Part shown: one piece after another, positions 11,069 to 29,900 of the stretch
How the letters are laid out: each line of letters opens with the position of its first letter
How positions within the stretch are numbered: position 1 is the first letter of the stretch
From: Halieaceae bacterium
Lineage (GTDB): Bacteria > Pseudomonadota > Gammaproteobacteria > Pseudomonadales > Halieaceae
Reading direction: 5' to 3'
Assembly: GCA_036351375.1 (NCBI GenBank)
Contig: JAZBOY010000293.1
Location: forward strand, 214 to 64,213
DNA length: 64,000 bases
Program-made: the position numbers and the translations under genes
The notes under the pieces: generated by a model
Database searches by the model: none
Told to the model about the DNA's origin: nothing
The model's input: only the letters and a program-made list of their open reading frames with translations

Positions 11069-12634
11069 TCAGGCCAGGGCGTCGTCCGCGACGAAGTACT
11101 GCGGGTCTTCGATGACGTTCACCTCCACCAGGCTGCCGGCCTTGCGTAGCAGGTGGCGGCAATCTGCGCTGAGGTGCACCAGGTGCAGGGCCTTGCCGCT
11201 GTTCAGGTAGCGCTCTGCGAGCGTGTCGATGGCTTCCAGCGCGGAGTGATCGCAGACCCGCGCACGGGCAAAGTCGATTACCACATCATCATTGGCGTCG
11301 GCAGGGTCAAACTGCTCAAGGAACGATGTAATCGAGCCGAAAAACAGTGGCCCGAACACGGCGTAGACGGTGGACCCCTTGTGGTCCTCGCGGGTTTCTA
11401 CCCGCACCTGCTTGGCGTGCTCCCAGGCAAACACCAACGCAGAGACTATCACTCCTACAATCACCGCCACTGCCAGGTCGGTGGCCACGGTCACGGCAGA
11501 CACCAGCACCAGCACCAGGGCGTCGCTGCGGGGCACCTTGCGGATGACCCTGAAGCTGCTCCATTCGAAGGTGCCGATCACCACAATAAACATGACTCCG
11601 ATCAGGGCAGCCATGGGAATCTGTTCGATCAGTGGTGAGGCCACCAGTATGAACAGCAGCAGGAAGAGGGCTGCGGATATGCCGGACAGGCGGCCGCGGC
11701 CCCCAGAGTTGACGTTGATCATGCTCTGGCCGATCATCGCGCAGCCGCCCATGCCGCCGAACAGTCCGGTGACGGTGTTGGCGACCCCCTGGCCAATGCA
11801 TTCCTTGTTGCCGCGACCGCGGGTTTCGGTGATCTCGTCCACCAACCGCAGGGTCAACAGGGATTCGATCAGGCCGATGGAGGCGAGAATGGCCGAGTAC
11901 GGGAAAATGATGGTCAGCGTTTCCCAGTTGAGGGGCACGCTGGGAATATGAAAGCCGGGCAGGCCGCCCTTGATGGAGGCGATATCCCCCACTACCCGGG
12001 TATCCAGCCCCAGGCCGAACACCAGCAGGCTCACGGCCACAATGGCCACCAGCGAAGACGGCACCAGGGTAGTGATGCGGGGCAGCAGGTGGATGATCGC
12101 CATGGTCAGCAGCACCAGGCCGATCAGCAGGGTGAGCTCGGCGCCTTCAAGCCACGCCACATCGATGATGCTGCCCTGCAGCGCGGTGCCCTGCAGCCAG
12201 CCGGGCTCGCCGGCCACCCCGAACTGGCTTAGCTGGGCCAGGAAGATCACGATGGCGAGGCCGTTTACAAAGCCCAGCATTACCGGGTGCGGCACCATGC
12301 GGATAAACTTTCCGAGTTTGAGTGCCCCCGCCAGGATTTGCAGCATGCCCATCAACACCACGGCGGCGAACAGGTATTCGACACCGTGGTCTGCCACCAG
12401 CGCCACCATCACCACGGCCAGCGCGCCGGTGGCGCCGGAAATCATGCCGGGGCGACCGCCGATGCAAGCGGTGATCAGCCCCACCATGAAAGCGGCGTAA
12501 AGGCCCACCAGGGGCTCGACGCCGGCAACAAACGCAAAGGCCACCGCCTCCGGCACCAGCGCCAGGGCAACGGTCAGTCCCGACAGGATGTCGCTGCGGA
12601 TTGTTGCGACCTTGTTGGGGTGAATCTCAAACAT
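11069..12634 (-). CDS. SulP-family anion (sulfate/bicarbonate) transporter with C-terminal STAS domain
   Basis: About 520 aa, polytopic. [18 protein letters not shown]-terminal motif and a STAS-like C-terminus. The track start at 12643 is GTG; the ATG is at 12634. Confidence 0.9.
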
Positions 12635-12932
12635 GCAAAACACTCATCACTTTAAAATGGCAATAGCCGGGCGCCAGCGCATTGCGGGCGCTGGTGTCCT
12701 GGGCGGTGGTACCGATCGACGGGAATGGTTGTTATACGGCGAGGCGGGCGCGCATGTTACAGGGAATGGGCCTGGAATGCAGCCGGGGGATGTGCGCTGT
12801 GTAATGCGTCCAGTCGCAATAGGCAGCGGGCAATGCGGCGAAGCGATGTCATCGCAGGACGAGGCGTATAGCGCGGAAATCGGGCGGCGCGCAGACTGGT
12901 GTTGTCAGGGGGACTGATAACAGGACAACACC

Positions 12933-14396
12933 ATGAAAACGATAATTCGCGGCGCAATGATGGCGCTGCTGTTGGTAACCGGGGCTGCGCAGGCCCAGGA
13001 TGACGAGTTCGATGTGGGTGCATTGATCGACCGGGTGGTGGCCGCCTATGGCGGTGATGCCCTCACCGGGATGCGCAACTACGAGATTGTCGAGGCCTAC
13101 ATCGGCCCCAACCTGGGGCAGAGCTGGGCGCCGGAGCTTTCCGACCTCAACAAGAACAATCTGCGCTTTGTGCACGATATTGAGAACGGCCGGGCCTATT
13201 TCGAGAGCTACTTCAAAGCGCGGGGCGGCATCTTCCCGAACCTGATCATCGTCAACGGCGAAGACGCCTTGACGGTGAACCTGATGATCAACCGCCACGG
13301 CGAGGCCAACTCGGCTGACCCCTATACCTTTGGCGGCGGCACCATGCGTACCACGGATACGCTGCTGGCGCGGCAGCTGCATGCCGCCCGCGATGAGGCC
13401 GAGTACCTTGGCCCCACCCGCTGGCTGAACCGGCCCCACGAGCAGGTGAAGATGCCGTTTCCGCTGAGCCCCGACCTTGTTCTCTTCATCGATGCCGAGA
13501 CCCACATGGTCACCCGTATGACCCGCGAGAACCCGCAGCTTGGCGCGCTGGACTACGTGTTTGATGACCACGTCGAAGTTGACGGCATCATGGCGGCCAA
13601 ACGGGTGTTCTTCTCGGTGGCGGGCGACCCGAACCTGATCAGCACTGGGCGCACGGTGCGCTTCAACCGCGATCTCGACGACGGCCTGTTTGAACGACCG
13701 GCGAAGACCGAGCCCGAGGGCGAACGCATCGACACCAGTGAAATGGTCGTCAACCGGCTGGCCAACAACGTCTACCACATCGGCCAGAACGGGGGTTATT
13801 CCATCTTTGTCGATACCGGCACGGAAGTGGTCGGCTGCGGCGGTTACCCGGGGCTGCGCGATCGACTGGCGAAATTCCAGGAGGCCATCGGTGCCCACAA
13901 GCGCCTCGCCTACCAGGTGGTAACGCACCACCACAACGACCACCTCGGTGGCATTGATGAGGCTTTGTCGCTGGGCGCCACCCTGGTCACCGTGGACGAC
14001 ACCGTGGAGGTGATACGCGATCTCAGCCAGCTGGCGCCGGAAAGCGGGCGGTTCCTCACCGTCAACGGCCGCATGACTCTGGGTGATGGCAAGGACCGGG
14101 TCGAGATCTACGATGTCTCGACCGTGCACTCTCGCAGCAACCTGCTGTTCTACGTGCCCGCCACTCGCACCGTGTTCATGGCCGATCATTTCGGCTCGCC
14201 CTACGCTGAAGGCGTGCCGGCGGCCACTCGCAATACCGTGAGCATGGCTGAGGCCCTTGAGCCCCTGGAACTGAATTACAACCGCATCGTCACGGCCCAC
14301 AACGCGAGGGTCTATACGGCCCGCGATTTTGAACGCTCGGTGCAGAGCTTCCGTGACTTCGACTGCCCGGACGACAGGCCGCTGTGTTCGCGCTGA
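12933..14396 (+). CDS. Secreted MBL-fold metallo-hydrolase with about 270-aa N-terminal extra domain
   Basis: Signal peptide. The HHHNDH (HxHxDH) zinc motif lies late in the protein (about aa 330). Confidence 0.8.
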   Translation: MKTIIRGAMMALLLVTGAAQAQDDEFDVGALIDRVVAAYGGDALTGMRNYEIVEAYIGPNLGQSWAPELSDLNKNNLRFVHDIENGRAYFESYFKARGGIFPNLIIVNGEDALTVNLMINRHGEANSADPYTFGGGTMRTTDTLLARQLHAARDEAEYLGPTRWLNRPHEQVKMPFPLSPDLVLFIDAETHMVTRMTRENPQLGALDYVFDDHVEVDGIMAAKRVFFSVAGDPNLISTGRTVRFNRDLDDGLFERPAKTEPEGERIDTSEMVVNRLANNVYHIGQNGGYSIFVDTGTEVVGCGGYPGLRDRLAKFQEAIGAHKRLAYQVVTHHHNDHLGGIDEALSLGATLVTVDDTVEVIRDLSQLAPESGRFLTVNGRMTLGDGKDRVEIYDVSTVHSRSNLLFYVPATRTVFMADHFGSPYAEGVPAATRNTVSMAEALEPLELNYNRIVTAHNARVYTARDFERSVQSFRDFDCPDDRPLCSR

Positions 14397-14731
14397 TGCG
14401 TCCGGAGAAGAACTTGCCGGGTAGCTGATTGCCCGCAGGTCGGCACCGTGCCCCCATAGCTCAGGTGTCGGCCTTTTCCGCCCGGTCGGGTCCTCCCTGG
14501 GGCCCGTGCCGGGCTTTCTTATTGGCAGTATGTGTGCTCAGCCGGGCGCCAGCCTGCGCTAGACCTGTTTGACGCCCCTCCCGCCTTAGCCTCCTCCAGC
14601 TGTTGCATTCGCGACCATCACCAACCGCTGCAATCACAGCGCAACAGGATTGTCATCTTCTGCTGCTATGTTGCGTTGCTCTCCCGTTAACTCATCCGTC
14701 GGTTTACCCGGCCCAAAAAAAGGAAAATATC

Positions 14732-16459
14732 ATGGGTTACTGCTTTGAGCGTGTGAGTCAAATTACCCTCGCGAGCGTGATGGCCGCGTCTGCCCTGACT
14801 GCCCAGGCGGGCATCGAGCTGGAACTCCTCGGCACCTACGGCCAACCGGACCCGGCCGCCGCCTTTGATGAGAGCGCCGCCGAAATCGTTGCCTTCGACA
14901 AAAGAAGCCAGCGGCTTTTCGTCACCAACGGCAACGAAAAGGTGCTGGACATCATCAGCATCAGCGACCCCGCTTCACCGTCACTGGTGGGTTCGATCAA
15001 TGTGACGGACAACCCCGATTTCGGTGCCTTTGTGGGCGGTGGCGCCAATAGTGTGGCCGTATACAAGGGCCTTGTGGCAGCAGCCATCGAGGCTGATACC
15101 GTTACCGATGACGGTGCGGTGGCCTTCTTTGACACAGACGGCAACTTCCTCAGCCTTGCAATCGTTTGTGCCCTCCCAGATATGCTCACCTTTACGCCCG
15201 ACGGCTCCAAAGTGCTCGCGGCCTGCGAAGGAGAGCCGGATGAAGGCGTGGACCCGGAAGGCGGTGTCGCGATCATCGACGTAAAGCGGGATGGCGACAT
15301 CAGGCGCATCCGTATTGCCGATTTCAATGACTTTGATGACGACGTCGATACGCTCCGCGCCGCGGGCGTTCGCCTGTTCCCGGAAGTGGGAACGCCGCCG
15401 TTGGCTGAAGGAGAAATCAGCGTCAGCCAGGACGTCGAGCCCGAGTACATTGGTGTCGACAAGAAAGGCAAGACGGCCTACGTAACCCTACAGGAGGCCA
15501 ATGCCCTGGCTGTGGTCAATATTCGTCGCGGCGTGATCACTGATATTCTCCCGCTCGGCACCAAAGACCACAGTCTTGCAGGCAACGGCCTGGACCCCTC
15601 TGATCGCGACGGCGGCATTGCCATCGGCACCTGGCCGGTTCGAGGCCTGTACATGCCCGATGCTATTGACTGCTATACGCCAAAGGGCCGGGGCAAGGGT
15701 CGGGGCAAGAAGACCTTCTGTATTACCGCCAACGAGGGCGACGACCGCGGTGACGCCGACGAAGATGCACGCGGCGACGCCATTCGTTTCAAGGATATTG
15801 AAGACGTGGTGTCCTTTGGCCGTACTGGTCTCAATGCCAGCGCAGCGCTGGACGCCATGGATTTGGGCGCTGATGAAGCGCTGGGTCGGCTCAATATCTC
15901 CAGCATCGATGGCATCGATGAAAACGGCGACCTCGACCAGCTCTTTGCCTACGGCGCCCGATCCTTCTCTATCTGGGACGAACACGGCAACCTGGTCTTC
16001 GATAGCGGCGACATGCTGGAACAGATCACGTCTCTGGCATTCCCCGAATACTTCAACGCATCCAATGATGCCAATGAAGACGACGGCGCGCCCGCCATCG
16101 ACGATCGCAGCGACAATAAAGGCCCTGAGCCTGAGGCCGTTACCATTGCGAAAATCAGGGGCCAACACTACGCCTTCATCGGCCTGGAGCGCATTGGCGG
16201 CGTCGCGGTCTTTGACGTAAGCGACCCGAAAGATCCCGAGTTCGTGCTGTACGAAAACAACCGGGATTTCCTCGCCGACAACGAGGCTGTCGAAATGGGC
16301 CTTGCGGGCGACTTCGGGCCCGAGAGTATCCTGATCATCGAAAAGAAAGACAGCCCCCTCAGGGGAACAGCACTGATGGTTGTGGCCAACGAGGTCAGTG
16401 GCACCACCACTGTCTATGCGATCCACGAAGTCAGGGGCAGAGGCCGGGGCAAGAAGTAA
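14732..16459 (+). CDS. Choice-of-anchor-I-like secreted beta-propeller protein (phosphatase/phytase-like family)
   Basis: ATG 14732 follows AAAGGAAA and gives the signal peptide MGYCFERVSQITLASVMAASALTAQA. The repeated SAAEIVAFD..RLFVTNG / PEYIGVD..AYVTLQEANALAVV pattern is typical of this family. The upstream ORF extension to 14603 is rejected. Confidence 0.7.
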   Translation: MGYCFERVSQITLASVMAASALTAQAGIELELLGTYGQPDPAAAFDESAAEIVAFDKRSQRLFVTNGNEKVLDIISISDPASPSLVGSINVTDNPDFGAFVGGGANSVAVYKGLVAAAIEADTVTDDGAVAFFDTDGNFLSLAIVCALPDMLTFTPDGSKVLAACEGEPDEGVDPEGGVAIIDVKRDGDIRRIRIADFNDFDDDVDTLRAAGVRLFPEVGTPPLAEGEISVSQDVEPEYIGVDKKGKTAYVTLQEANALAVVNIRRGVITDILPLGTKDHSLAGNGLDPSDRDGGIAIGTWPVRGLYMPDAIDCYTPKGRGKGRGKKTFCITANEGDDRGDADEDARGDAIRFKDIEDVVSFGRTGLNASAALDAMDLGADEALGRLNISSIDGIDENGDLDQLFAYGARSFSIWDEHGNLVFDSGDMLEQITSLAFPEYFNASNDANEDDGAPAIDDRSDNKGPEPEAVTIAKIRGQHYAFIGLERIGGVAVFDVSDPKDPEFVLYENNRDFLADNEAVEMGLAGDFGPESILIIEKKDSPLRGTALMVVANEVSGTTTVYAIHEVRGRGRGKK

Positions 16460-16531: not shown

Positions 16532-16573
16532 GCGGCCGGCTAGGCGCGGCCGGCGAGGCGCGGCCGGCGAGGC
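16532..16573. repeat. Intergenic 14-bp tandem repeat x3
   Basis: gcggccggctaggc gcggccggcgaggc gcggccggcgaggc. Confidence 0.85.
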
Positions 16574-16671
16574 GCTCTCCCTGGTCCCACCTCCGGGTTA
16601 GCGCCTGAATCTGGCCGGTCTCCGACCGAGCCTTGTTGTTGGTATGATGCGTCCAGACCGGACGCACACCC

Positions 16672-17697
16672 ATGCCAGACCTGCTTATCGCCGCCATCAG
16701 TTTCAGCCTCGCCCAGGTGGGCCTGGGGCTGGCACTGTTGCTGCGTCAGCCCGGCTGGGGCATTCGTGAGCGGCTGTACGCGCTGTTGATGGTGGCGATC
16801 ACCGCCTACCTGTGTATGCCGCTGGTGCCCGGCACCCCGTTCGAGATTCCCGCCGCCACCCTGCAAACCGCTGTCCCCGGGGCCTTCTACCTGTTCAGCG
16901 CGAGCGTGTTTGACGACGACTTCCGGTTGCGCCCCTGGCAGTTGGGGCTGGTGGGTTTCACGGTGTTGATGCCGCTGGTGGGTATGCTCGTGCCAGGGGC
17001 ACCGCGCTGGCTGTTTTTCACGCTGCCCCAGGCAGCGGAGTTTGTCCTGCTGGGGCTTACCCTGTGGGTGGTGTCGCGGCACTGGCGCACCGACCTGGTG
17101 GAGGCCCGCCGTCGACTGCGGCTGGGCTATGTCGGGATCAACGGCGCCTACCTGCTGTTGCTGGTGATGTCGCGGGAAATTCTGTTCCCTGGCGCCGCAT
17201 GGCTGGCTACCTGGGAATACCTGCCGCCGGCGCTGCTGCTGTTTGTTATCAACCTGTTCCTGCTCGAGTACCGCAGCGGTCTGCTGTTCCTGCCGGCAGA
17301 AAAGCCGCCCGTCGCAGAGGCGCCACCAGTGGCGGTGGCCCCTGAACTGCTCACCCGCCTCGAGCAACACATGCAGGCCGAGACCGCCTGGCGCCAGATG
17401 GGCCTGACCCTGGGTGAGCTGGCGGCCCAAATTGAGGTGCCCCAGTACCGCCTGCGGCAGGCCATCAACGGCGGCCTGGGGTATCGAAATTTCAGTGATT
17501 TCCTCAACAGCTACCGGGTGAAAGAGGCGGCCGAGCGCCTGGCCAGCCCGGCGGATGCCCAGCTGCCGGTGCTCACCATTGCCATGGATGCCGGTTTTCG
17601 GTCGTTGAGTTCCTTCAACAAGGCCTTCAAGGAGGTCCATCAGCAAACTCCCACTGCCTGGCGGCGGGCTCATCTCGGCAGCGTTGACGCAGCCTGA
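16672..17697 (+). CDS. AraC/XylS-family transcriptional regulator with polytopic membrane N-terminal domain
   Basis: About 200 aa of hydrophobic helices, then a C-terminal AraC HTH (LTLGELAAQIEVPQYRLRQAIN...GFRSLSSFNKAFKEVHQQTP). Confidence 0.85.
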   Translation: MPDLLIAAISFSLAQVGLGLALLLRQPGWGIRERLYALLMVAITAYLCMPLVPGTPFEIPAATLQTAVPGAFYLFSASVFDDDFRLRPWQLGLVGFTVLMPLVGMLVPGAPRWLFFTLPQAAEFVLLGLTLWVVSRHWRTDLVEARRRLRLGYVGINGAYLLLLVMSREILFPGAAWLATWEYLPPALLLFVINLFLLEYRSGLLFLPAEKPPVAEAPPVAVAPELLTRLEQHMQAETAWRQMGLTLGELAAQIEVPQYRLRQAINGGLGYRNFSDFLNSYRVKEAAERLASPADAQLPVLTIAMDAGFRSLSSFNKAFKEVHQQTPTAWRRAHLGSVDAA

Positions 17698-17831
17698 ATG
17701 GTCTGATCAGGCCAATATTGCGCTCCTTTAACGAGAAAATGCTGACGGATTCTTAAAATTCGGCAGATTTCGGCGTCCAGAAGGCCATAATCTGCGGAAT
17801 TCGCTCGGGGGAGCACGTTCGGGAACGTCAC

Positions 17832-18464
17832 ATGAAAAGCATCAAAACCGCCATCGCCGGCCTGGCTATCGCCCTGGCAGCGACCATGGCAACCGTCGCC
17901 CACGGGGCAGACCTGGAGGCCGGTAAGGCCAGCTACGGTACCTGCGCTGCCTGCCACGGCAGTGATGCGGCGGGCAATCCCGCGCTCAACGCGCCGGCAT
18001 TGGCCGGCCAGTCCGCCGACTACCTGGCGCGCCAGATCACCCACTACCAGGCCGGCATTCGCGGTGCCGACGCCCGCGACACCCTTGGCCGCCAGATGCA
18101 GGGCATGGCCGCCACCCTGACAAGCCCGGAGGCGGTTGCCAATGTGGCGGCTTATATTGCCAGCCTGCCCGCTGGTGACGGCGGCGAGGCGGGTGAGCAT
18201 GACAAGCGCAACGGCGAGGTGCAGTACAACGCCAACTGCGGCGCCTGCCACGGCGCCAATGCCCAGGGCAATCCCGCGTTGAACGCCCCCAATCTTGCCA
18301 CCCTGGATGAGGCCTACCTGCGCCGCCAGTACCAGAATTTCCAACAGGGCATCCGCGGCAGCCATCCGGAAGACAAGTACGGCCGCCAGATGCAAATGAT
18401 GTCCAGCATGCTGGGCTCAGATAAAGACCTCGACGACGTCATCGGCTTTATCCTCGCGCAATGA
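17832..18464 (+). CDS. Di-haem cytochrome c4-like protein
   Basis: Signal peptide. Two CxxCH motifs (CAACHG, CGACHG) sit in duplicated modules, each with a downstream GRQMQ-M Met-ligand context. Confidence 0.85.
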   Translation: MKSIKTAIAGLAIALAATMATVAHGADLEAGKASYGTCAACHGSDAAGNPALNAPALAGQSADYLARQITHYQAGIRGADARDTLGRQMQGMAATLTSPEAVANVAAYIASLPAGDGGEAGEHDKRNGEVQYNANCGACHGANAQGNPALNAPNLATLDEAYLRRQYQNFQQGIRGSHPEDKYGRQMQMMSSMLGSDKDLDDVIGFILAQ

Positions 18465-19762
18465 TCTCCCGTGGCAGCACAGTATTCCTGGCCGCAGCCT
18501 TCGCTCTCTGGGCGGGGCTGGCGGCGCTGGTGGCCTCTGCCTGGGAAGCGACCTCAGCCACCACGCCGCTGGCATCTGAGCCACGGGAGATGGCGAGCTG
18601 GGCGCCGGAAGATATCGTGCTGTCCAGCCACTGCCCGCCGGGCTTTGAGGACACCGGCGCCGAGGGCTGCAAGCTGCGCAACCTGTACCAGTTCTATGAC
18701 TCGCTGCAGGACCGCGGCGTCGGTGGCACCCAGACAGCTCTGCCGGCCCACCGCGACGGCTTCAGCCCGGAAGAAATCGACCTGGGCCGTTACCTGTTTT
18801 TTGATCCGGCCCTGTCCGGCGACGGCAGCCATTCCTGCGCCAGCTGTCATCACCCCGATATGGGCTTCAGCGACGGCCGCGGCCGCGCCATCGGCGTGGC
18901 GGGCCACCCGGTAAAGCGCTCTTCGCCGACACTGTGGAACGTGGCTTTCCTCGACCAGCTATTCTGGGACGTACGCGCCAGTTCGCTGGAAGAGCAGGCC
19001 CAGGGGCCACTCTACTCGCCGGAGGAGATGGGCAACACGCCGCAGCAGCTGCTGGCCACCCTCAACGGCAATGAGACATACCGACGCCTGTTCCGCCAGG
19101 CCTACCCTGAGGCTGAGCTCGACGAAATCAGCCTGGGCCAGGTGTACCGCGCGCTGGCGGCCTTCCAGACCTCGCTGATTTCCCTGAACAGCCGCTACGA
19201 CCGCTACGCCCACGGCTACCACGCCGCGCTCAACGAGCGCGAAGTCGCGGGCATGAACGTGTTCCGCTCGTTTGTGGCGCGCTGCGCTGAGTGCCACACG
19301 CCGCCGCTGTTTACCAACCAGCAGGTGGCGGTCATCGGTGCGCCCGAGCCTGAAGGCCTGCCGCTGGATGTCGGCGCCGAGGCGACCTGGGGTGCGGCCA
19401 AGATGAAGGGCGGCTTCAAGGTGCCGACCCTGCGCAATATCGAGAAAACCGCTCCCTACATGCACTCCGGCCGCTTTGCCACCCTGCGCGAGACGGTGGA
19501 GTTCTACACCAAGGGCCGCGGCCATGCGGTGCCCGAGGGTGTCGATATGCACATCCATTGGCATATCTGGGATCCGAAACTGACCGACGAGGAGCTCGAC
19601 CTGGTAGTGGATTTCCTCAAGACCCTTACAGACGAAACGTTTTCACCGCCTATCCCCGGGGTTGTTCCCTCGGGCCTGGCGCCGATCGGGGTATCACCAC
19701 TTGATAACAAGCCGCCGGCAACTGCAGACCGCGCGAGCACACACAAAGGAGCAGCATCATGA
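18461..19762 (+). CDS. Di-haem cytochrome c peroxidase family protein (CCP/MauG-like)
   Basis: CASCHHP and CAECHTPPLFTN haem motifs; GRYLFFDPALSGDGSHSCASCH is typical of the CCP/MauG family. ATGA overlaps with both neighbours. Confidence 0.88.
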   Translation: MISRGSTVFLAAAFALWAGLAALVASAWEATSATTPLASEPREMASWAPEDIVLSSHCPPGFEDTGAEGCKLRNLYQFYDSLQDRGVGGTQTALPAHRDGFSPEEIDLGRYLFFDPALSGDGSHSCASCHHPDMGFSDGRGRAIGVAGHPVKRSSPTLWNVAFLDQLFWDVRASSLEEQAQGPLYSPEEMGNTPQQLLATLNGNETYRRLFRQAYPEAELDEISLGQVYRALAAFQTSLISLNSRYDRYAHGYHAALNEREVAGMNVFRSFVARCAECHTPPLFTNQQVAVIGAPEPEGLPLDVGAEATWGAAKMKGGFKVPTLRNIEKTAPYMHSGRFATLRETVEFYTKGRGHAVPEGVDMHIHWHIWDPKLTDEELDLVVDFLKTLTDETFSPPIPGVVPSGLAPIGVSPLDNKPPATADRASTHKGAAS

Positions 19763-21312
19763 AAATGGGCAAACTGGTAGCCGTGGTACTGGTGCTGGTC
19801 GCATTCGCGGCCGGCATGCAGTTCGGCAAGAAGACCGGCGGTTCCGCGCCGGTGGTCACCAGCACCAGCGGGGGCGCGGCCTACAGCGGCAGCACGGCCG
19901 CTAAGGCCACGGATGAAGAGGTAGCGGCGGCCAAGGAGATGATGCTCTCTGGCAGCAGCAAGTTTGTAGCCGGCCCGCCTATGAGTGACGTGGTGGTGAC
20001 CGTCGAGGATGGCGAGTCCATCCAGGCCGCAGTACAGGCTGCCGAGCCGGGCACCACGATTCACGTGATGCCGGGCACCTACAGCGAAACTGTCTACATC
20101 GACAAGGACGGCATTCGCCTGATCGGCATTGTGGAAGGTTCCGAGCGCGCCACCATGGACGGCGGCGGCACCCTCAACGACGCCATCCTGTTCTCCGGCA
20201 ACAACATCGTGGTGGAGGGATTCCTGATCACGAAGTACAAGGGGAACGCCATCATGAGCCAGGCCGGCAACAACTACGAGATTCGCGACAACATCATCGT
20301 GGACACCGGCGTGTACGGCATCTTCCCGCAGCTCGGCAAGAACGGCGTGGTAGAGCATAACGTCATCTCCGGTATCGAAGACGCCGCCATCTACGTGGGC
20401 ATGAGCGACAACGTGCACGTGGCCTTCAACGAAGTGTTCGACAGCGTTGCCGGTATCGAAATCGAAAACAGCCGCCACGCCATCGTCGAGAGCAACTTCG
20501 TCTACAACAACACCGGCGGCGTGCTGGCGTTCATCACCCCGGGCCTGCCGATCAAGACCACCTACGACGTCATCATCCGCAACAACTGGATCTCCAATAA
20601 CAACACGCCCAACTTCGGCGCGCCAGGCTCCACCGTCGGCGGTATTCCGGCCGGTACCGGCATCATGGTGATGGCGGCGGACGACGTGGTAGTGGAAGGC
20701 AACATCATTACCAACAACAAGACCGTGGGCATCATGTCTGTGGATCACAACACCGCGGCGCAGCTCACCAATGTGACCGTGGACCCGGAGGCCGACCCCA
20801 ACTCCGACGGCCTCAAGATCCTCAACAACACCATGCACAACAACGGTTACGACACTATCGACGAGATCAAGGCATTGATGCTGGCCGACTTCAAGACCGG
20901 CAACCCGGACATTTTCGTGATTGGCCCCACCACCGATAGCTGCATCATCAACCGGCACCGCTACGTGCATTCCGGGGTGGATGAGTGGGCGGAGTGTGGC
21001 TTCACGAATACCTCGACCATCGCCAACTACCTGCTGCCGCCGGTGCCGCCCCGCGTCATCGAGCCGGGTGAGCGCGGCAAGATCGCCTACCTGGGCGTAT
21101 GCGCCGGTTGCCACACCTATGAAGGGCGAATGATCGGCCCGCCGGTGAAGATCATCCAGGCCCTGTACATGGACAACCCCCACGGCCTGGCCGAGTACAT
21201 CGCCGCACCGGTCAAGAAGCGCGAGGACTACCCGGAAATGCCGCCCCAGGATTACCTCGACGAGGACACCCGCCTGGCGGTCGCCGAGTACATGCTCTCC
21301 GTCAAGCGGTAG
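19759..21312 (+). CDS. Right-handed parallel beta-helix repeat protein fused to a C-terminal mono-haem cytochrome c domain
   Basis: N-terminal anchor or signal. Repeated NNxI..N / G-I-x-x turns (NNIVVEGFLIT, RDNIIVDTG, EHNVISG, ESNFVYNN, RNNWISNN, EGNIITNN). C-terminal CAGCH...RMIGPP. AAGGAG RBS. Confidence 0.75.
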   Translation: MKMGKLVAVVLVLVAFAAGMQFGKKTGGSAPVVTSTSGGAAYSGSTAAKATDEEVAAAKEMMLSGSSKFVAGPPMSDVVVTVEDGESIQAAVQAAEPGTTIHVMPGTYSETVYIDKDGIRLIGIVEGSERATMDGGGTLNDAILFSGNNIVVEGFLITKYKGNAIMSQAGNNYEIRDNIIVDTGVYGIFPQLGKNGVVEHNVISGIEDAAIYVGMSDNVHVAFNEVFDSVAGIEIENSRHAIVESNFVYNNTGGVLAFITPGLPIKTTYDVIIRNNWISNNNTPNFGAPGSTVGGIPAGTGIMVMAADDVVVEGNIITNNKTVGIMSVDHNTAAQLTNVTVDPEADPNSDGLKILNNTMHNNGYDTIDEIKALMLADFKTGNPDIFVIGPTTDSCIINRHRYVHSGVDEWAECGFTNTSTIANYLLPPVPPRVIEPGERGKIAYLGVCAGCHTYEGRMIGPPVKIIQALYMDNPHGLAEYIAAPVKKREDYPEMPPQDYLDEDTRLAVAEYMLSVKR

Positions 21313-21541: not shown

Positions 21542-23755
21542 ATGGCGTTGCGAACAGGACAGACACTGGGCTACAGAGCAATGAAACGAGCTATCCGCGA
21601 ACTGCGGCGGCGCGGGGTTATCCGCGCGGCGGGCTTGTACATTGCCCTCACGTGGCTGCTGCTGCAGATTGCCGACGTCGTATTTCCCGCCTTCGACCTC
21701 CCTGACAGTGCGCTGCGCTATATCCTGTTCGGTGCCGTGGTCGGCTTCCCGCTGGCGATGGTGTTCTCCTGGTTCTACGACATCTCCAGCGAGGGTATCC
21801 GTTCCGAGGAGGAGCTGCGCGAGGCCGGTGAAAGCGGCAAGGGCAGCTACCTGTCGGGGGCGACCATCGTTCTGCTGGTGGTGGCGTTGGGCGTTTCCCT
21901 GTACGCCAACTATGAGCAGGCCAGCGAGGATATTCCTGCCACGGAACACGAGATTATTTCGATCCTGGTTTCTGACTTTGTGAATGAAACCGGCGACCCG
22001 ATTTTTACCGGCTCGCTGGAGCCCGCCCTGGCCATCGGCATTGAGGCGGCCCCCTTCATAAGCTCCTACGCCAGGCATCAAGCCGCAATCATCGCCGGCC
22101 AGATTGCAGGCAGGGAAGAACTGAATGAAGAAACGGCGCGGCTGGTGTCCGTGCGAGAAGGCATTCGACTGGTACTTAGCGGTGTTATTCGACCCGACGG
22201 CGAGGGTTACTACTTCAGCCTGCGCGCGGTGGACCCCCGCGAGGGCGAAGTGATTGCGAATGCCAGCGCCAGCGCCGGTTCGAAAGTTGATGTACTGCCC
22301 GCCGTCGGCAAGCTCGCCATTCAGATTCGTGAAGAGCTGGGAGACGCCAGCCTGTCGGAAGACCCCGAAGCGAACGAAACCTTTACGGCGGCCTCGCTGG
22401 AGGCAGCCCAGTACTACACGATTGCCCAGAACTATAACCGCACGGAGCAGAATGAACTCGCCTCGGAGTACTACCAGAAAGCGATCGCGGAAGACCCGAA
22501 CTTTGGGCGCGCCTATTCCGGTTGGGCGCTCAGTGAGAGAAGGCTGGGTCGCAGCGAGCACGCGAAAGAGCTCTGGGAAAAAACCCTCACGCTGCTGGAT
22601 ACGATGACCGAGCGCGAACGGTACCGGACCCAGGGGGCATACTACCTGGCTGTCACCGGCAATTTCCGCAAAGCCATTGAGGCCTATGAGGAATTGATCA
22701 CGCGCTATCCCGCTGACAATGTCGGTCGCAACAACCTGGCGCTGGCCTACTTCTGGGATCGTCAGTTCGACCAGGCCCTGACGATTGGTGGTGAGCTGGT
22801 AGAGCTGTATCCCAATACGCCGGTCTACCGAAGCAACTACGCCCTCTACGCTATGTATGCGAGCGACTTCGACCTCGCTCGCAGCCAGGCCACTGCCCTG
22901 TTGGAGGCGGCGCCCGAGTTTTTCCTGGGCTACTTGCCCCTGGCCATCGCGGAACTCGCGCAGGGGAAGTACAAGGCGGCCGAGGAGGTCTACTCGCGCA
23001 TGGCGAAGCAGGGCAGCGAGGCAGAATCCGCCGCCCGCAGAGGGCTGGCAGACGTCGCCCTGTATCGAGGCGACTGGCCGCTGGCGCAGGCGCTATTGGA
23101 GGAGGGTATCCGCTTTGATGAGGGCATTGGCAATAACGCTTCTGCGCGGCGCAAACAGGTGGATCTGGCCTTGGCACTGTTCGAACAGGGGCGAGTGGAT
23201 GATGCAAGGGTGCAGCTCGAAGCTGCGATCGCCGGAAGCAGCGACCTGCGCCGCCTGTTGCCGGCGGCTCGCCTGTTTGTCCGCCTCGGTGACACAGAGC
23301 GCGCCGATGAACTGCGCGCCCTGCTGGATAGCGAACTGAGGGCCGGCAGCCGGGCCGCTGCAGATATCATTGCCGCTTACCTGGCGGAGGCTGACGGTGA
23401 TACGGCAACAGCAGTAGATCACCTCAACGCCTCGCTGGAGCATGTCGATACCTGGCTGGCGCGCTTCGAGTTGGGGCGCGTGTACGCCAATGCAGGTTAT
23501 TTTGTTGAGGCCCTCAGCGAACTTGAACGGGCTGAGGGCCGTCTCGGGGAGGCGGCTGCCCTGTTCCTGGATGAAGTTCCCACCTTTCACTACAGCGCAA
23601 CGCTGGACTATTGGCTCGGCTTGACCCGCCAGGAACTGGGGTTGGGCGAGACGGGTAAACGGGATCTGGAGGCGTTTTTGGCGTTGCGCGGTGCCAATGC
23701 CGGCAGCGCTGTGGTTGCAGATGCGCGCTCCCGGCTTGAAGTGAGTGGTAAGTAA
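21542..23755 (+). CDS. Membrane-anchored TPR-repeat protein
   Basis: N-terminus IRELRRRGVIRAAGLYIALTWLLLQIADVVFPAF plus a second TM helix, then many TPR-like repeats. An alternative start is ATG 21581. Confidence 0.75.
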   Translation: MALRTGQTLGYRAMKRAIRELRRRGVIRAAGLYIALTWLLLQIADVVFPAFDLPDSALRYILFGAVVGFPLAMVFSWFYDISSEGIRSEEELREAGESGKGSYLSGATIVLLVVALGVSLYANYEQASEDIPATEHEIISILVSDFVNETGDPIFTGSLEPALAIGIEAAPFISSYARHQAAIIAGQIAGREELNEETARLVSVREGIRLVLSGVIRPDGEGYYFSLRAVDPREGEVIANASASAGSKVDVLPAVGKLAIQIREELGDASLSEDPEANETFTAASLEAAQYYTIAQNYNRTEQNELASEYYQKAIAEDPNFGRAYSGWALSERRLGRSEHAKELWEKTLTLLDTMTERERYRTQGAYYLAVTGNFRKAIEAYEELITRYPADNVGRNNLALAYFWDRQFDQALTIGGELVELYPNTPVYRSNYALYAMYASDFDLARSQATALLEAAPEFFLGYLPLAIAELAQGKYKAAEEVYSRMAKQGSEAESAARRGLADVALYRGDWPLAQALLEEGIRFDEGIGNNASARRKQVDLALALFEQGRVDDARVQLEAAIAGSSDLRRLLPAARLFVRLGDTERADELRALLDSELRAGSRAAADIIAAYLAEADGDTATAVDHLNASLEHVDTWLARFELGRVYANAGYFVEALSELERAEGRLGEAAALFLDEVPTFHYSATLDYWLGLTRQELGLGETGKRDLEAFLALRGANAGSAVVADARSRLEVSGK

Positions 23756-23918: not shown

Positions 23919-26900
23919 ATGTATCTCGTTCGAGTTGTGCCGCTGCTGGTGGGCGCGTTAATCCTGCTCGCATCCAATTCACCGGTCAGCCTGGCGCAGG
24001 ATGCGCCACTCTCCATCGGCCCGAATATCAATATGGTGTCGGGTACCCAATGGCCGGAGGGCGATCCCTTCCTGCGGCAACAGAACGAACCCTCCCTGGC
24101 GTTTTCCAGCCGCAACAAGCTGCACATGCTGGCCGGCGCCAATGACTACCGTACGGTGGATGTGCCCGGCGACTTCGAAGCCGGCGCCACCGGCGATTCC
24201 TGGCTCAGCTATTTCTGGTCTACCAACGGTGGCGGCACCTGGAAGTCCACGCTGATTCCCTGCTACCCCCAGGACACCACCTCGGATTGTTCGACCAACC
24301 CCCTGAGGGGTTTTGCTGCCGGTGCCGACCCGGTAGTGCGCGCCGGTGCCAATGGCATGTTCTATTACGCGGGCATCGCCTTCGAGCGCAGCGAGAATCC
24401 GAGGAGCCAGATATTCGTCTCGCGCTTTATCGACCTCAACAATGACGAGGGCGGCGACCCGATCCGCTACATCGATACTGTGCAGGTCGATCTCGACGAA
24501 ACCGGTGATCGCTTCCTCGACAAGGTCTGGGTTGCCGTCGATATCCCTCGAGGCAGTGCGACCGAGACTTTCAGCGTTACCCAGAGCAATGGCGAGACGG
24601 TCAGCCAGACAGTCAGCTGCGGCAATATTTACGTGGCCTATGCCGCGCTGACCGGAGACGGTGCCACCCTGCGCTCGGAAATCATGCTCAGCACTTCTGC
24701 GGACTGCGGCAGCACCTGGTCTACGCCCCAACCGATCAGTGAGCCGGACACGCTCAACCAGGGCGCAAACATTGCCATCAACCCGAGCTCTGGCCCGGGT
24801 GGTGGCGGCGTGCATGTTGGTTGGCGGCGATTCGACACCGTGGAAGCCTTCCTGGGCACCCCGGCGGTGTCCTGCGCCAAGCCGCTGAAGGATTGGCGAC
24901 GCAAAAAGAAGTCGCAGGTGGCGGTGGAGTGGCCGGTAGATACGGTGGATATCGGCGACCTGCGACTGACCCGGGATGAGGCCCTGGACCTGTTGGCGCA
25001 GAGGCCCGGGGACAACGATCAGCCCGAGTCCAACAAGTCGGTCAGGCTGGCGCAATACCTGGTGGCGTCCAAGCTGAATCTCATCTCCGGCGGTGGCCAG
25101 GCGTCTGATACTTTCGACCCGGCTGAATGGACGCGCACACTGGTCGGGCTGGTGGATGAAGTGGATGACTTCTTCCGGGAGAATCCGCTGCTCATTGTTG
25201 AACCAGCCAAAAAGAGCAGGAAAAGCAAGAAGAGCCGGAAGAGTAAAAAGAGCAAGAAGGACGACTGGGACTACGGGGACAAGTGGGACGAGTTCTACGG
25301 CCAGGCAGTTTATGTCGGCAGCGACCTCGACCGTGATGAGCGTCGGCAGGCCAATGCCCTGCGCCGCGATCTCCGGCGGAACTACCTCGGTTCGGAAGAC
25401 TGTGTCGCCACTGCCGGCACCGATCCCATCACCACCGGCTCCACCAACGCCATGGTGGCGACAAGCTCCGGCGATGGCGGGGCGAGCTGGGCAGCACCGG
25501 TAACGGTGGCCGAAATTCGCACCTTCGACCAGGGCGGTACCAACTTCTCTTTCCGTACCACGGCCTATCCCACGCTGGCTGTAGATAAGACCGGCCGGGT
25601 CTACATGGCCTACGCGGCTCGCGGGTTTGCTACCCAGCGCCCGGATGAGGAATCCGGTGATGCGCGCATCGTTTTGTCGGTCTCCAGCGATGGTGGTTCC
25701 ACCTGGCAGGCGCCTTACCCGATTGATGACGACCCCGAGATGCCGGGCCACCAGTTCAAGCCTTCGCTACTCTTTGCGGGCGGCCGGCTGGTCGTAGTGT
25801 TCTACGACCTGCGCGCCGACGTGTCGGGCCTTTTCGAACGCTTCGTGTACGACGTGCCCGAACCCGATCGACTGCGCCACACCTTGGATGTGCGAGCAGC
25901 CACTGCCAACGTGCTGGCGGCGCCGCTGATGCCGCAGTTCACGGTTTACGATGTCACTGACCGCAGGGACTCCCAGCAGACTTCTCGCTATGCCTTCATC
26001 ACCACGGGCAACGGCATACCGATAGAAACCGTGCAGCTACAGTACATGGTGCCCAACCTGCCTACCCACTCGGGCGGCACCCAGCCGTTTATCGGCGACT
26101 ATGTGGACGTGGCCACCAAGACCATTCTCAAGGAAGGTGACGGCTGGCGCTTTGCCACCGAGCCTGGCGATGTGGACGTTTACCAGGCGGTGTGGACCGA
26201 CAATCGTGATATATCGCCGCCGCCGGACGGTGACTGGACCCGCTACCAACCGCTCAATCTCGACAGCGGCGGTGGCGGCAGCGTCAGTATATTTGACGGC
26301 TCCCCAATTCCTGCCTGTGAACCCGGCGTCACCAGCCAGTACACGGGCACCCGTAACCAGAATATCTACACCGCCGCGCTCTCTGAAGGGCTGATCGTCG
26401 CGGCACCGGGCGGCAACCGGCCCCTGGGCATTGCACCCGGTGCAACGGAGCCGCTGGAGCGCGCCTACGTGGTATATGTGCAAAATGTCACTGCCGTGGA
26501 GCGCAGCTACCGGCTCACAGTCAGCGAACCGGTGGAGGGGTCGGCGTCCTTCGAGCAGTTTGATTCGCTCACCAGCGTCGATGTCTCGGTGCCGCCATAC
26601 TCGAGTACCGTGGAAACCGTGTTCGCCAGCTCTCCCAACCCTGACGAGCGTATCGTCGTGCAGGTGCAGGAGCTCGACCCGACTGGCAGTGTACTGCCGG
26701 GTGGCCTGTTCTCAACGGTACTGTTGAATGCCGATCCGACGGCACCGCCGCCCAGTAATGCGGACCTACTGACGGCGGAAACGCACAATCCGACGATCCT
26801 GAATCCGACGATCCTGAATCCGACGATACTCAACCCGACGATCCTGAACCCGACGATTCTCAACCCGACGATCCTGAATACCGCGGTGTTCAACCCGACA

Positions 26901-29900
26901 ATCCTGAATCCGACGATCCTGAACACCGCGGTGTTCAACCCGACGATTCTGAACCCGACGATTCTGAATCCGACGATTCTGAATCCGACGATCCTGAACC
27001 CGACCATCCTGAATCCGACGATTCTGAATCCGACCATTCTGAACCCGACGATCCTCAATCAGGCGGTCTACAACCCGACGATTCTCAATCCGACGATCCT
27101 GAATCCGACGATTCTCAATAGCGCCATCACCGACCCCTTGCAGGAATCCGCAGAAATTACCTTCGCGGTGCAGAACGATGGCAGCGCCACCAGTTCCTAC
27201 GACATCAACCTCGCGTCCAGCCAGGGCAGCGATGACGGCTTCACCTACCAGGTGCTGGTCTATCGCCTCAACAAGACCCCGGTGGCCGACGGTTGCAGTC
27301 TCGAGGAAGAGGCCAGCCAGGAGCTGATCGCCAACGTTGTGGATCCAGGCAACCAGCTGGACCCGGCGGGTGGCGACGGCGAGACCTCGTTCTACATTGA
27401 GCCCGGGGAAGAAGTATTCGTCACCATCCGCGTCCTGCCGGATACCACCCAGCCCGACCCCGGCGACCCGGGTGAGCTCGACAACAACACCCTGGATCTC
27501 TCGATCGCGGTGGTGCCGCAGGCCGTTAATTCCGAAGACGCCGAGATGGGAGAAACCGAGCCCACTGGCACTTCGACGACCACACCTCCAGTACCCCCCG
27601 TGCTTATCGACACGATTGAAATCCCCGACGGCGAAGTCGGCCAGCCGTATAGCGTGGCGTTGGCAGCCAGCGGCGGCGTTGCGCCGCTGAACTGGAGCCT
27701 GGCCCTGGGTGCGGAACTGCTGGACGGCCTGAGCCTGTCGCCTGCCGGCGTGCTCAGCGGTACTCCGGCGGAACCCGGCGGCCTGGCAGTGCCGGTGCGC
27801 GTGACGGATGGCATTCAGGTGGCGCAGGCCAGCTTCTTTGCCACCATCGAACCGCCGCCCTTGTTCATCACGACCACCACCTTGCCAGCCGGCCAGGTCG
27901 GTCAGGCCTACCCGGCCACGACGCTGGCTTCCTCTGGCGGCTTTGGTGATATCAGCTGGGGCGTGGTGAGCGGCAGCTTGCCGCCCGGCCTGACCCTTGC
28001 GGTGGACGGCGGTCTGTCCGGCACGCCCTCTGCCGATGGCTCCTTCAACTTTACCGTGGAGGCCACCGATGGCTTCCAGGCGGTGCAACAGAGCCTTGCG
28101 GTGGATATCGCCCCGGAGAACGTGATCGGCGGTGACGGCGGTGGTCCGTTCACCCTGACCTGCCCCGCCGGCACCATCGGCAAGGGGCTACGCGGCCGCG
28201 CGCTCCAGGATATCGACACCATTGAGCTGATCTGTGCCGAGGTGGTCAGCGTGACCAATGGCTTCCCCGAGCTTGGGGCCGAGGTAAGTGCCGGCGATCT
28301 CGGCAACACCGGTGGCCTCGATTTCGGTGAAGATCTTGTGTGTCCGGACTTCACCGTCCTCACGGGCATTCGCGCCAACGAGCGAACCCTGGGCAGCGGT
28401 AACGTCATCATCGACCAGCTGGGCGTGACCTGTATCGACAGCGGTGGTGACCTGGTGTTCTCAACGCTGGTGGCCGACAACGACGTCGGCGGCCCGGTCG
28501 CCTCCGTGGACTGCCCGGTTGACGAGTTTGTCAGCGGTGTCTCCGGGCGCGTGGGTCTGCTGCTGGACGCGATCGGTGTGAGCTGCGCGCCGGTGAGTGG
28601 CGAGTTTGTCGCGGCGGATATCGCTCCCAAGTATTACGGCGTCGCGGTGGCCAACCCTGGCTTCCTGTCTCGTACTGGCCAGGTGCTGGAATTCAGCCAG
28701 GCGCCGCGCACCGGCACTGCGTTTACGTTCTCCGAGTCGGTCGGTGAGCCCACGAACCGACCCTTCACCTGGGATGTTATGGACGGTGAGCTGGTGCTGA
28801 CCTATGGCGTGCTTCCGGGAGTGTCTTTCTTTGATACCCTTGATGCATCCACGGCTACCCCCGACCAGGCTGCGCTCATCGCGGCGCAGCCCGGATTCAT
28901 CGGCCAGATAGAAGGCCGCCAGAGATTCATCGAGACCGTGTATACCCTGGTGTCCGAGACCGACCTGCTCGGTGTGGCCCGTGAGGATACGCAGATCATT
29001 GAGTATCTCCCGATACCGGTGCCGGTCTCTGCCGAGTATCCGGATGGCAGCCTGCAATTGCCTCCACGGTTTGTGACCAGCAATGCCGCCGGCACGCTGC
29101 GCGACGCGGCGACGGCGCCGGTGATCCCGCTGTCGGATACGTGCAATACGGAGCCATGTGTACCCGGCACCTGGGGAGGTACCGCGCGCTATCTGCCGGG
29201 CGTGAGGCAGTTTGATAACCAGCCCTACCCGGTCACCAACTATGGTGAGGTGCTGAACTTCGCCACCGGCGGCCAGCAGACGGTGAGCGGGGATATCTCC
29301 AACCTCGCGGCCACCTGGACAGTCAGTGGCGGTAGCCTGGTTGTTGATTACGGCGACGGCTGGACCCAGACGGTGACGCCCGTCGGTGTGAACGGTCTCG
29401 AATACGGCATGTTCAGTGAATACACCGACGGTGTGGATCGCTACGCCAGTTATGATATCTGGGTGAAGCGTGACCCAGGCTTCAACTTTACGGAGGCCTA
29501 CCTCACCAGTGCCAACGACAGCTACTGGAACGCCGACATAAACACCTGGATACCGGGCAGGCTAAACCCCGACGGATCACGGCCATTTAATGAACGGTTT
29601 GGCTGGGAGCTTGACGGTGGTACCGATCCCAACTCCGGATTCAATCGTTCAGTGATCTTCGCTGGTGCCAACGCAGACCAACTGACGCTGTTCCTGCGAC
29701 CCAATGAATGGACCATCGAGCCCTCCGGCCGCGTCCAGATCGATCGCTTCCTGGATACCCAGTTCAATACCTACGATCGATTCTGGTACCCGATTGCCAA
29801 CACCATCGTGGACGGAGATCGGCAGTTCTACGTGATTGAACTCGAGCGCCGCGACAGCGGGCTGCTGTTCCCGGCGCGCATGAACATCCAGCGGGAGTTG

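Follow-up and report, generated by a model that had tools for sequence, protein, structure and literature searches.

An operon pairing a MauG-type di-haem enzyme with a TIGR03805 beta-helix protein in a Halieaceae bacterium

The operon and its products

The 64,000-nucleotide stretch of Halieaceae DNA analysed here (contig JAZBOY010000293.1 of assembly GCA_036351375.1; hereafter the window) carries, on one strand, four open reading frames (ORFs) for a membrane AraC regulator, a di-haem cytochrome c4, a di-haem enzyme resembling MauG and MbnH, and a beta-helix protein with a fused cytochrome c domain. The operon is best explained as a self-contained periplasmic redox module, the core of which is an obligate pair of the MauG-type enzyme and the TIGR03805 beta-helix protein. 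A preliminary description, made from the sequence alone, had given these four ORFs, two ATGA start/stop overlaps and an AraC gene 134 bp upstream on the same strand. The ORF positions bear out the layout, 134 nt separate the AraC stop from the c4 start, and the overlaps at 18461 (c4 and di-haem enzyme) and 19759 (di-haem enzyme and beta-helix protein), which have the geometry of translational coupling, can be read directly from the sequence. A Shine-Dalgarno sequence, AAGGAG, lies at 19747-19752, 7 nt before the start of the beta-helix gene. All four gene identities likewise hold in Pfam and NCBIfam domain scans and in matches to the PDB.

16672-17697, + strand: membrane AraC regulator ORF, 341 amino acids
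17832-18464, + strand: di-haem cytochrome c4 ORF, 210 amino acids
18461-19762, + strand: MauG/MbnH-like di-haem enzyme ORF, 433 amino acids
19759-21312, + strand: beta-helix and cytochrome c protein ORF, 517 amino acids

The di-haem enzyme falls in the CCP_MauG superfamily (PF03150; 183 bits against a cut-off of 25.6, E 6.7e-54). A sequence search of the PDB returned canonical peroxidases (1e-42), 6E1C (7e-39), an MbnH or MbnH-like di-haem enzyme, MauG (1e-24) and the Burkholderia enzyme BthA (6NX0, 1e-19), and some database records call its homologues 'cytochrome-c peroxidase'. The best NCBIfam match is the MbnH model TIGR04039, at 225.5 bits against a cut-off of 362.85, and the MauG model TIGR03791 scored 197 bits against 443.85. 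The adjoining protein is a beta-helix and not MbnP, and no methylamine dehydrogenase genes (mauA/mauB) were found among the annotated window ORFs or the neighbours in related loci. Given that the scores lie below both equivalog cut-offs, the enzyme is placed in a distinct subfamily of the Tyr-ligated branch. Its features are the following.

Residues 1-27: signal peptide or anchor
18632-18670, + strand: Cys hairpin C58...C70 in the N-terminal extension
18836-18850, + strand: haem 1 motif CASCH, residue 126; by homology the peroxide-binding five-coordinate haem
18965-18967, + strand: bridging W169
18995-19027, + strand: distal residues Q179, P183 and E189
19283-19297, + strand: haem 2 motif CAECH, residue 275; six-coordinate haem
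19505-19507, + strand: Tyr349, in residue-by-residue alignment with the MauG axial ligand Tyr294 (3L4M)

Conservation of these residues was assessed in 62 aligned sequences, namely the window protein and 61 orthologues from related loci. Tyr349 is kept in 62 of 62 and aligns also with a Tyr of 6E1C, at a position where the Nitrosomonas peroxidase has a Met region; W169, the equivalent of MauG W93, is kept in 100%; and Q179, P183 and E189, the equivalents of MauG Q103, P107 and E113, lie inside a conserved distal block, LE.Q..+PL....EM. With the Tyr, the Trp and the Gln/Pro/Glu set all present, the enzyme is predicted to belong to the MauG-type Tyr-ligated branch, and the earlier view that it is MauG/MbnH-like and not an ordinary peroxidase is upheld by the invariance of the Tyr aligned with Tyr294. 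The features on which MauG, MbnH and BthA rely in their H2O2 and bis-Fe(IV) chemistry, namely the His/Tyr haem, the bridging Trp and the distal Gln/Pro/Glu, are thus all retained. Formation of bis-Fe(IV) depends in MauG on the ligand Tyr294, and in BthA on the corresponding Tyr (PMC6405878); the roles of the bridging Trp and the distal residues in MauG are those named in the titles of references that it cites (PMC6405878). The N-terminal extension singled out earlier for its Cys content is also a genuine feature of the family, with C58 and C70 at least 95% conserved in a hairpin of consensus CP-x-[SG]-F-x(6-10)-C.

The beta-helix protein matches the TIGR03805 model over residues 88-377, at 162.3 bits against a cut-off of 141.5, as well as Pfam Beta_helix (7e-19) and NosD (3e-12). 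Its closest relatives come from Halieaceae, with 89% identity to a protein of Congregibacter variabilis, which places the window in the OM60/NOR5 group of marine Gammaproteobacteria.

19993-21018, + strand: right-handed beta-helix domain, residues ~79-420, from an AlphaFold2 (AF2) model
20314-20466, + strand: conserved polar patch Y186, F/Y189, D208, Y212, E234 and E236, a candidate active, metal or cofactor site
21064-21312, + strand: class-I cytochrome c domain (c551/c552-like) at the C-terminus
21100-21114, + strand: haem motif CAGCH of the cytochrome c domain, residue 448
21238-21240, + strand: Met494 of the cytochrome c domain

In the AF2 model (mean predicted local distance difference test score, pLDDT, 77; mostly 85-96 over residues 70-430) a hydrophobic N-terminal helix and a disordered linker are followed by a right-handed beta-helix of about ten coils and a small cap; the cytochrome c domain is poorly placed. 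The patch residues lie on successive coils of 22-23 residues. Two cysteines of the cap, C395 and C413, hardly vary (at least 90% conserved in alignment A1), a pattern that points to a disulfide, and the other invariant positions, Asn and Gly, would be structural, in an Asn ladder and in turns. Dinucleotide, pyrroloquinoline quinone (PQQ) and Fe-S signatures and other known cofactor motifs were looked for in the beta-helix domain and none was found. Sequence and profile searches of the PDB gave no solved relative of this domain, with matches only to the cytochrome c and cupredoxin tails, and Foldseek against the PDB gave only generic beta-helix epimerases and lyases (E 3e-5 to 1e-3, template modelling score, TM, 0.35-0.5), among them the mannuronan epimerases AlgE4 and AlgE6, RbmB, PL6 alginate lyases and chondroitinase B. 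A close kinship with NosD, whose fold had been mentioned for this protein, does not hold: the NosD model TIGR04247 gave 52.4 bits against a cut-off of 300, NosD lies outside the top 50 Foldseek PDB matches, and no nos genes (nosFY/nosZ) occur among the annotated window ORFs or the conserved neighbours. Among the profile matches anticipated for the operon, those to CCP_MauG, Beta_helix and TIGR03805 were found, and TIGR03806 has no match in the window operon, its pairing with this family being confined to the distant loci L071-L081 and the protein P0190 described below.

Pairing across genomes and its context

Relatives of the beta-helix protein were collected from 1.84 billion representative proteins (E at most 1e-3; 4,143 clusters), with more than 2,000 related proteins in 90% clusters, and from a scan of one genome per GTDB species, which gave at least 595 confirmed relatives, the best 80 loci of which were analysed (L numbers below denote loci and P numbers proteins). 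These relatives come from Gammaproteobacteria, Bacteroidota and further phyla. Of the 63 judgeable loci, 57 by ORF clustering and 61 by tblastn have a MauG-like gene upstream of the one for the beta-helix protein, tblastn adding L025, L028, L062 and L065; among the closer loci with enough upstream DNA, tblastn with the window proteins finds it in all except L027 and L067. The gap between the two genes is mostly -4 to +20 nt, with the identical 4-nt overlap in 14 loci, and the genes that flank the pair vary between genomes. The arrangement is far beyond chance, the same order recurring across phyla with unrelated flanks.

Full-length proteins that combine the beta-helix with a cytochrome c domain were found down to 40% identity, and the cytochrome c domain is fused in most loci. 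In P0139, P0141, P0145 and L064 the C-terminal domain is instead an amicyanin/plastocyanin-like cupredoxin; the type-1 copper domain of the first three matches amicyanin at 1e-9, with Pfam Copper-bind on record, and L064 has a MauG-like gene with an overlapping start. The carrier attached to the helix domain is a cytochrome c, an amicyanin-like cupredoxin or none. Furthermore, in five proteins (P0147, P0148, P0150, P0172 and P0222) a MauG/MbnH-like N-terminal part is fused to a TIGR03805 C-terminal part, and these fused forms are without a separate cytochrome c domain. Given the adjacency in 61 of 63 loci across phyla and the natural fusions, coincidence is excluded, as is the chance adjacency of a detoxifying peroxidase. 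The MauG-like and beta-helix proteins clearly work together and probably form a physical complex, and the beta-helix protein is confirmed as the dedicated partner that it had been supposed to be. Given also that the helix domain has no cofactor signature and yet is recurrently fused to a one-electron carrier, it must take part in electron transfer by means that are invisible in sequence.

Di-haem enzymes paired with a beta-helix and cytochrome c protein have the Cys hairpin, which is absent from the fused forms, from L064 and L066, and from the partners of beta-helix proteins without a cytochrome c domain. This distribution suggests that the hairpin is a docking element of the unfused complex. 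In L066 (7926-10282), from a member of the Planctomycetaceae, a MauG-like gene is followed by two tandem beta-helix genes, neither of which has an electron-carrier domain.

A sister subfamily (L071-L081), with 32-38% identity, keeps the same Y/Y/D/Y/E/E patch and has neither a fused carrier nor a MauG-like gene; a gene for a di-haem cytochrome of the TIGR03806 (SO2930-type) family follows instead, and P0190 is a TIGR03805-TIGR03806 fusion. The patch is thus kept in both the MauG-associated and the TIGR03806-associated subfamilies. TIGR03805 is reportedly described by its curators as forming, with TIGR03806, a two-gene or fused unit without assigned function. Homology between the MauG-like and TIGR03806 proteins was considered and rejected, hhalign having aligned 23 columns around the haem motif at 47% probability, and the two are treated as unrelated.

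Beyond the pair, the context is less constant. A c4 gene immediately precedes the pair in 33 of 57 loci and is missing from the flavobacterial loci L041, L043-L048, L051 and L059, and full-length AraC homologues adjoin the operon in 9 of 63 related loci, so that of the co-occurrence expected for the three genes and AraC, the MauG-like/beta-helix pair stands (61/63), but c4 and AraC do not stand as fixed members. In four Bacteroidota loci a membrane-anchored LytTR regulator takes the place of AraC; BLASTP gave no match between the AraC and LytTR membrane domains, and the two architectures are regarded as analogous only. A Pfam scan of the 105 nearest flanking ORFs gave 14 TonB-dependent receptors, 8 AraC proteins, 5 short-chain dehydrogenases and 3 LytTR proteins. 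TonB-dependent receptors occur somewhere in 29 of 63 loci and are the only enriched neighbour family, the enriched receptors being of the siderophore-receptor type. This link, in abundant marine heterotrophs (Halieaceae, Alteromonadales, Flavobacteriia), suggests a role in the use of a common environmental substrate.

A SusC/SusD pair lies directly downstream of the MauG-like/beta-helix pair in L041, L051 and L059. The flavobacterial loci L041 (5761-15193), L051, L059 and L044 resemble a polysaccharide utilization locus (PUL), with the membrane LytTR regulator and the pair; L041 has a PKD-domain lipoprotein as well, and in L044 a SusC-type receptor is followed by an unclustered ORF of ~511 amino acids in the SusD position. 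An aldehyde dehydrogenase gene follows in some flavobacterial PUL-like loci; genes for class-3 aldehyde dehydrogenases (benzaldehyde/fatty-aldehyde type) occur in 5 loci, which is consistent with an aldehyde product. Both fusion genes with readable context adjoin genes for GSDH/AA12-like PQQ sugar dehydrogenases. From the SusC/SusD, TonB and GSDH/AA12 contexts it is possible that an imported glycan or other polymer undergoes haem-powered oxidation.

Two minor observations concern these neighbours. The fusions of L082 (3266-9283), L083 and L084 (350-4084) lie by GSDH/AA12-like genes in two different contexts, and in L082 and L083 a SWIM-domain gene and a ParA-like gene stand between the fusion and the sugar dehydrogenase gene. 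In L038, from Spongiibacter marinus, a metallophosphoesterase gene of the purple-acid-phosphatase type (11805-13328) follows the TonB-dependent receptor gene downstream of the operon, a single case that recalls the pairing of BthA with PhosA in Burkholderia.

Candidate functions of the pair

The pair can be compared with several known systems. With MauG and precursor methylamine dehydrogenase (preMADH) it shares the CCP_MauG fold, the His/Tyr haem, the bridging Trp, the distal Gln/Pro/Glu and a dedicated partner encoded beside the enzyme, a partner, moreover, that passes its electrons to a cupredoxin (amicyanin) or to a cytochrome of the c type; it differs in that the window partner is a beta-helix without conserved Trp, in that the pair can be fused and in the N-terminal Cys hairpin. 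MbnH and MbnP offer the closest NCBIfam model, an adjoining periplasmic partner and, often, a TonB receptor nearby, whereas the window partner is unrelated to MbnP, has no conserved Trp, His or Met and belongs to a family that carries its own haem or copper carrier domain. BthA, which forms bis-Fe(IV) and is also a peroxidase, is likewise Tyr-ligated and has a conserved adjacent partner gene and a conserved disulfide, but the match is distant (1e-19), its partner is a purple acid phosphatase and its disulfide is C-terminal, not N-terminal as here. The SO_2931/SO_2930 type of TIGR03805/TIGR03806 pair has the same beta-helix family and patch, always paired and sometimes fused with a di-haem protein; there the di-haem partner is encoded downstream and is of an unrelated family, whereas here it is an upstream CCP_MauG protein and the beta-helix has an extra cytochrome c domain. 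Canonical bacterial di-haem peroxidases resemble the enzyme in fold, haem spacing, the Ca/Trp bridge region, periplasmic location and small c-type or cupredoxin partners, and differ in the Met ligand, here replaced by Tyr, in the obligate beta-helix link and in the fusion of the donor-type domain to the beta-helix protein. Finally, the beta-helix polysaccharide enzymes (AlgE4/AlgG, PL6, RbmB) share the fold by Foldseek and the stacking of acidic residues on successive coils, which resembles the Asn/Glu/Glu Ca2+ site of PL6 lyases; the structural scores are nevertheless weak, there is no sequence relation, their catalytic motifs are absent here, and none of them has a haem or copper domain or a haem-enzyme partner.

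By analogy with MauG and MbnH, it is tentatively suggested that the MauG-like enzyme modifies its beta-helix partner and so creates a dehydrogenase wired to an oxidase, an account to which a little less than even confidence is attached. A maturase role for the enzyme is plausible: a 2025 review of protein-derived cofactors names only MauG and MbnH as di-haem maturases, and for each of these two, the Tyr-ligated relatives of known function, the protein that is modified is a partner with its gene close by (PMC11951088). Once activated by H2O2, or by O2 and electrons, the MauG-like enzyme would dock on the beta-helix protein and oxidise residues of the patch by long-range hole transfer, the stacked Y186, Y189 and Y212 being the best candidates, and this oxidation would install a protein-derived redox cofactor or a metal ligand. 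Once matured, the protein may be a dehydrogenase for a compound whose entry, in many genomes, would be through the adjacent TonB-dependent receptor. Electrons would travel from the fused cytochrome c domain by way of cytochrome c4 to a cbb3 oxidase, and the same compound would induce the operon through the membrane AraC regulator or, in flavobacteria, the membrane LytTR regulator. Cytochrome c and cupredoxin acceptors serve the dehydrogenases that contain tryptophan tryptophylquinone (TTQ) and cysteine tryptophylquinone (CTQ). The maturase account would explain the MauG signature, the carrier fusions that resemble these TTQ and CTQ acceptors, the absence of other cofactor motifs and the nearby aldehyde dehydrogenase genes.

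Several observations weigh against it. The coils of the beta-helix domain contain no conserved Cys, His, Met or Trp (C395 and C413 being the cap pair), and Trp is the residue that MauG and MbnH modify. In the sister subfamily the patch is kept although the di-haem partner is unrelated, so that its need for a MauG-type maturase is not obvious, and no MauG-like gene adjoins the beta-helix genes of L027, L067 and P0145, the last of which lies downstream of sdhCDAB. An enzyme that acts once on each substrate molecule would also not usually be fused covalently to its substrate or coupled to it strictly 1:1. In sequence the di-haem enzyme is nearer to ordinary peroxidases than to MauG, and the AF2 model of the natural fusion P0148, built from an 8-sequence alignment, has a predicted TM score (pTM) of 0.55 with the haem domain poorly predicted.

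Some of these points are better accommodated if the two proteins form a permanent catalytic complex, a possible though doubtful alternative in which the beta-helix domain binds the substrate (a glycan or other polymer, a phenolic compound, or a metal ion bound by the Tyr/Asp/Glu patch) and each turnover sends electrons through the carrier to the MauG-like subunit, which reduces H2O2 or O2, or to c4 and the oxidase. The fused carrier would then play the part of the free cytochrome c551, azurin or pseudoazurin of bacterial di-haem peroxidases. Cytochromes of the c551 type, azurins and pseudoazurins are the known donors of such peroxidases, and the c551-like and amicyanin/pseudoazurin-like carriers match them. 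Such a complex better explains the fusions, which with 1:1 translational coupling fit a stable assembly, the loss of the carrier from fused forms, as if the di-haem domain had replaced the cytochrome c, and the sister subfamily, for which an electron transfer shared by both di-haem partners is the simplest reading of the common patch. The beta-helix genes that lack a MauG-like neighbour suit it at least as well as they suit a maturase. It is also consistent with the SusC/SusD genes and PKD lipoprotein directly downstream in flavobacteria and the two fusion loci by GSDH/AA12-like genes, and the Tyr-ligated BthA does catalyse H2O2 turnover when external donors supply the electrons (PMC6405878). 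In structure the beta-helix lies nearest to polysaccharide epimerases and lyases, but by Foldseek the resemblance is weak (E 1e-5 to 1e-3, TM 0.35-0.5) and common to the fold in general, and no carbohydrate-active enzyme or sugar-catabolic genes are consistently nearby. Moreover, the invariant Tyr ligand is a hallmark of the protein-modifying branch, and the beta-helix has no recognisable cofactor that could draw electrons from an organic substrate; a lone one-electron carrier would suffice only for a metal ion or for a phenol that forms radicals.

Two further accounts carry less weight. AraC-type regulators commonly control siderophore receptors, mbn operons contain a TonB-dependent transporter, and Tyr, Asp and Glu are a typical hard-metal ligand set; given also that siderophore-type TonB-dependent receptors are the most enriched neighbours and that MbnH is the best NCBIfam match (225 bits), the Tyr/Asp/Glu residues of the beta-helix, perhaps oxidised, might capture Fe or Cu delivered by the receptor, with the cytochromes reducing the metal, and MbnH does make a kynurenine copper ligand in MbnP (PMC11951088). 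Handling of metal in this manner is nevertheless improbable, since the MbnH score falls short of the cut-off, an MbnP-like protein and conserved Trp, His or Met residues are missing, the neighbourhood has no conserved gene for an inner-membrane metal transporter or a periplasmic binding protein, and the aldehyde dehydrogenase, SusC/SusD and GSDH contexts are left unexplained; nor was any Fur or Cu-box evidence seen, although no search was aimed at it. That the enzyme is an ordinary c4-fed peroxidase lying beside a beta-helix carbohydrate-active enzyme or a NosD-like chaperone would suit its best PDB matches, the naming of its homologues as peroxidases and the Pfam NosD match, and is very improbable given the replacement of the Met ligand by an invariant Tyr, the adjacency and fusions, the NosD score of 52 bits against 300 and the lack of nosFYLZ-type genes nearby.

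The pair constitutes a well-supported conserved, widespread and uncharacterised module on the theme of a MauG-family enzyme with a dedicated partner, like MauG/preMADH, MbnH/MbnP and possibly BthA/PhosA. The preliminary description had not recognised the arrangement as a characterised pathway, and a full-text search of one literature library agrees, finding no study of the MauG-like/beta-helix arrangement, of TIGR03805/03806 or of MbnH/MauG neighbourhoods; SO_2931 appeared only in lists of outer-membrane multihaem cytochrome genes, with no functional study of SO_2930/SO_2931. To our knowledge, MauG-family enzymes are among the few long-range protein oxidants that act through bis-Fe(IV), and only the TTQ and MbnP kynurenine clients are understood. 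The pair defines a third and much larger MauG-type family, with a tractable partner and natural fusions, and the function of that partner would add a new protein-derived cofactor or reveal a new haem-driven periplasmic oxidase, while giving a function to the long-unassigned TIGR03805 family. It is rather unlikely, at present, that beta-helix proteins of the TIGR03805 family form a new periplasmic oxidoreductase class with a Tyr-derived cofactor or a Tyr/Asp/Glu-bound redox metal installed or driven by a MauG-type enzyme; if they do, a protein-derived cofactor would for the first time have a beta-helix as its scaffold, and the proteins would be the third known client class for MauG-like enzymes.

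Regulator, cytochrome c4 and other genes of the window

The remaining features of the operon belong to its regulator and to the cytochrome c4.

16532-16575: 14-bp unit GCGGCCGGCGAGGC in 3.1 tandem copies, ~100 bp before the AraC start
17698-17831, + strand: AraC-c4 intergenic region, 134 nt, the presumed promoter/operator of the three-gene operon
17943-17957, + strand: c4 haem motif CAACH
18237-18251, + strand: c4 haem motif CGACH

The AraC protein has an HTH_18 domain at residues 250-332 (Pfam, E 4e-14) and scores above the cut-offs of both AraC/XylS models, HTH_18 and HTH_AraC (53 bits against 33.6 and 32 bits against 26.6). Ahead of HTH_18, its N-terminal ~210 residues are polytopic, with at least four hydrophobic helices, and this membrane domain gave no family match. 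The repeat GCGGCCGGCGAGGC upstream of the gene could be an operator-like or a slippage-prone element. No sigma-70 consensus was found in the intergenic region between AraC and c4, and a scan of the operon for promoter and terminator consensus sequences gave nothing convincing. The c4 protein has a signal peptide and two Cytochrom_C domains (Pfam), as expected of a cytochrome c4; its best PDB match is the cytochrome c4 1ETP (3.7e-19), followed by 6Q2U at 8e-17, and its matches include cbb3-c4 complexes.

Domain scans of the window ORFs gave no TonB-dependent receptor near the operon, and the genes that flank it here, for a metallo-beta-lactamase-fold protein, a choice-of-anchor I protein, a tetratricopeptide repeat (TPR) protein and a giant BNR/repeat protein, are not conserved with it elsewhere. 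Upstream of the AraC gene lie the genes for the secreted metallo-beta-lactamase-fold protein (12933-14396, + strand) and for the choice-of-anchor I protein (14603-16459, + strand; NCBIfam, 517 bits), whose Gly/Arg/Lys-rich tracts are an internal GRGKGRGKK and a C-terminal GRGRGKK; a protein with a C39-like peptidase domain and TPRs is encoded at 9825-10850 (+ strand). Downstream of the operon, the TPR protein at 21542-23755 (+ strand) is membrane-anchored and has a partial match to TIGR04510 (124 bits against a cut-off of 400), the model named 'putative peptide modification system cyclase'. It is followed at 23919-30593 (+ strand) by the gene for a secreted protein of 2,224 amino acids with weak BNR/sialidase-like repeats and a Lys/Ser-rich tract, KKSRKSKKSRKSKKSKK, with a DNA repeat at 25208-25259; the same gene contains, at 26787-27112, about 22 tandem units of 15 bp that encode the pentapeptide NPTIL.

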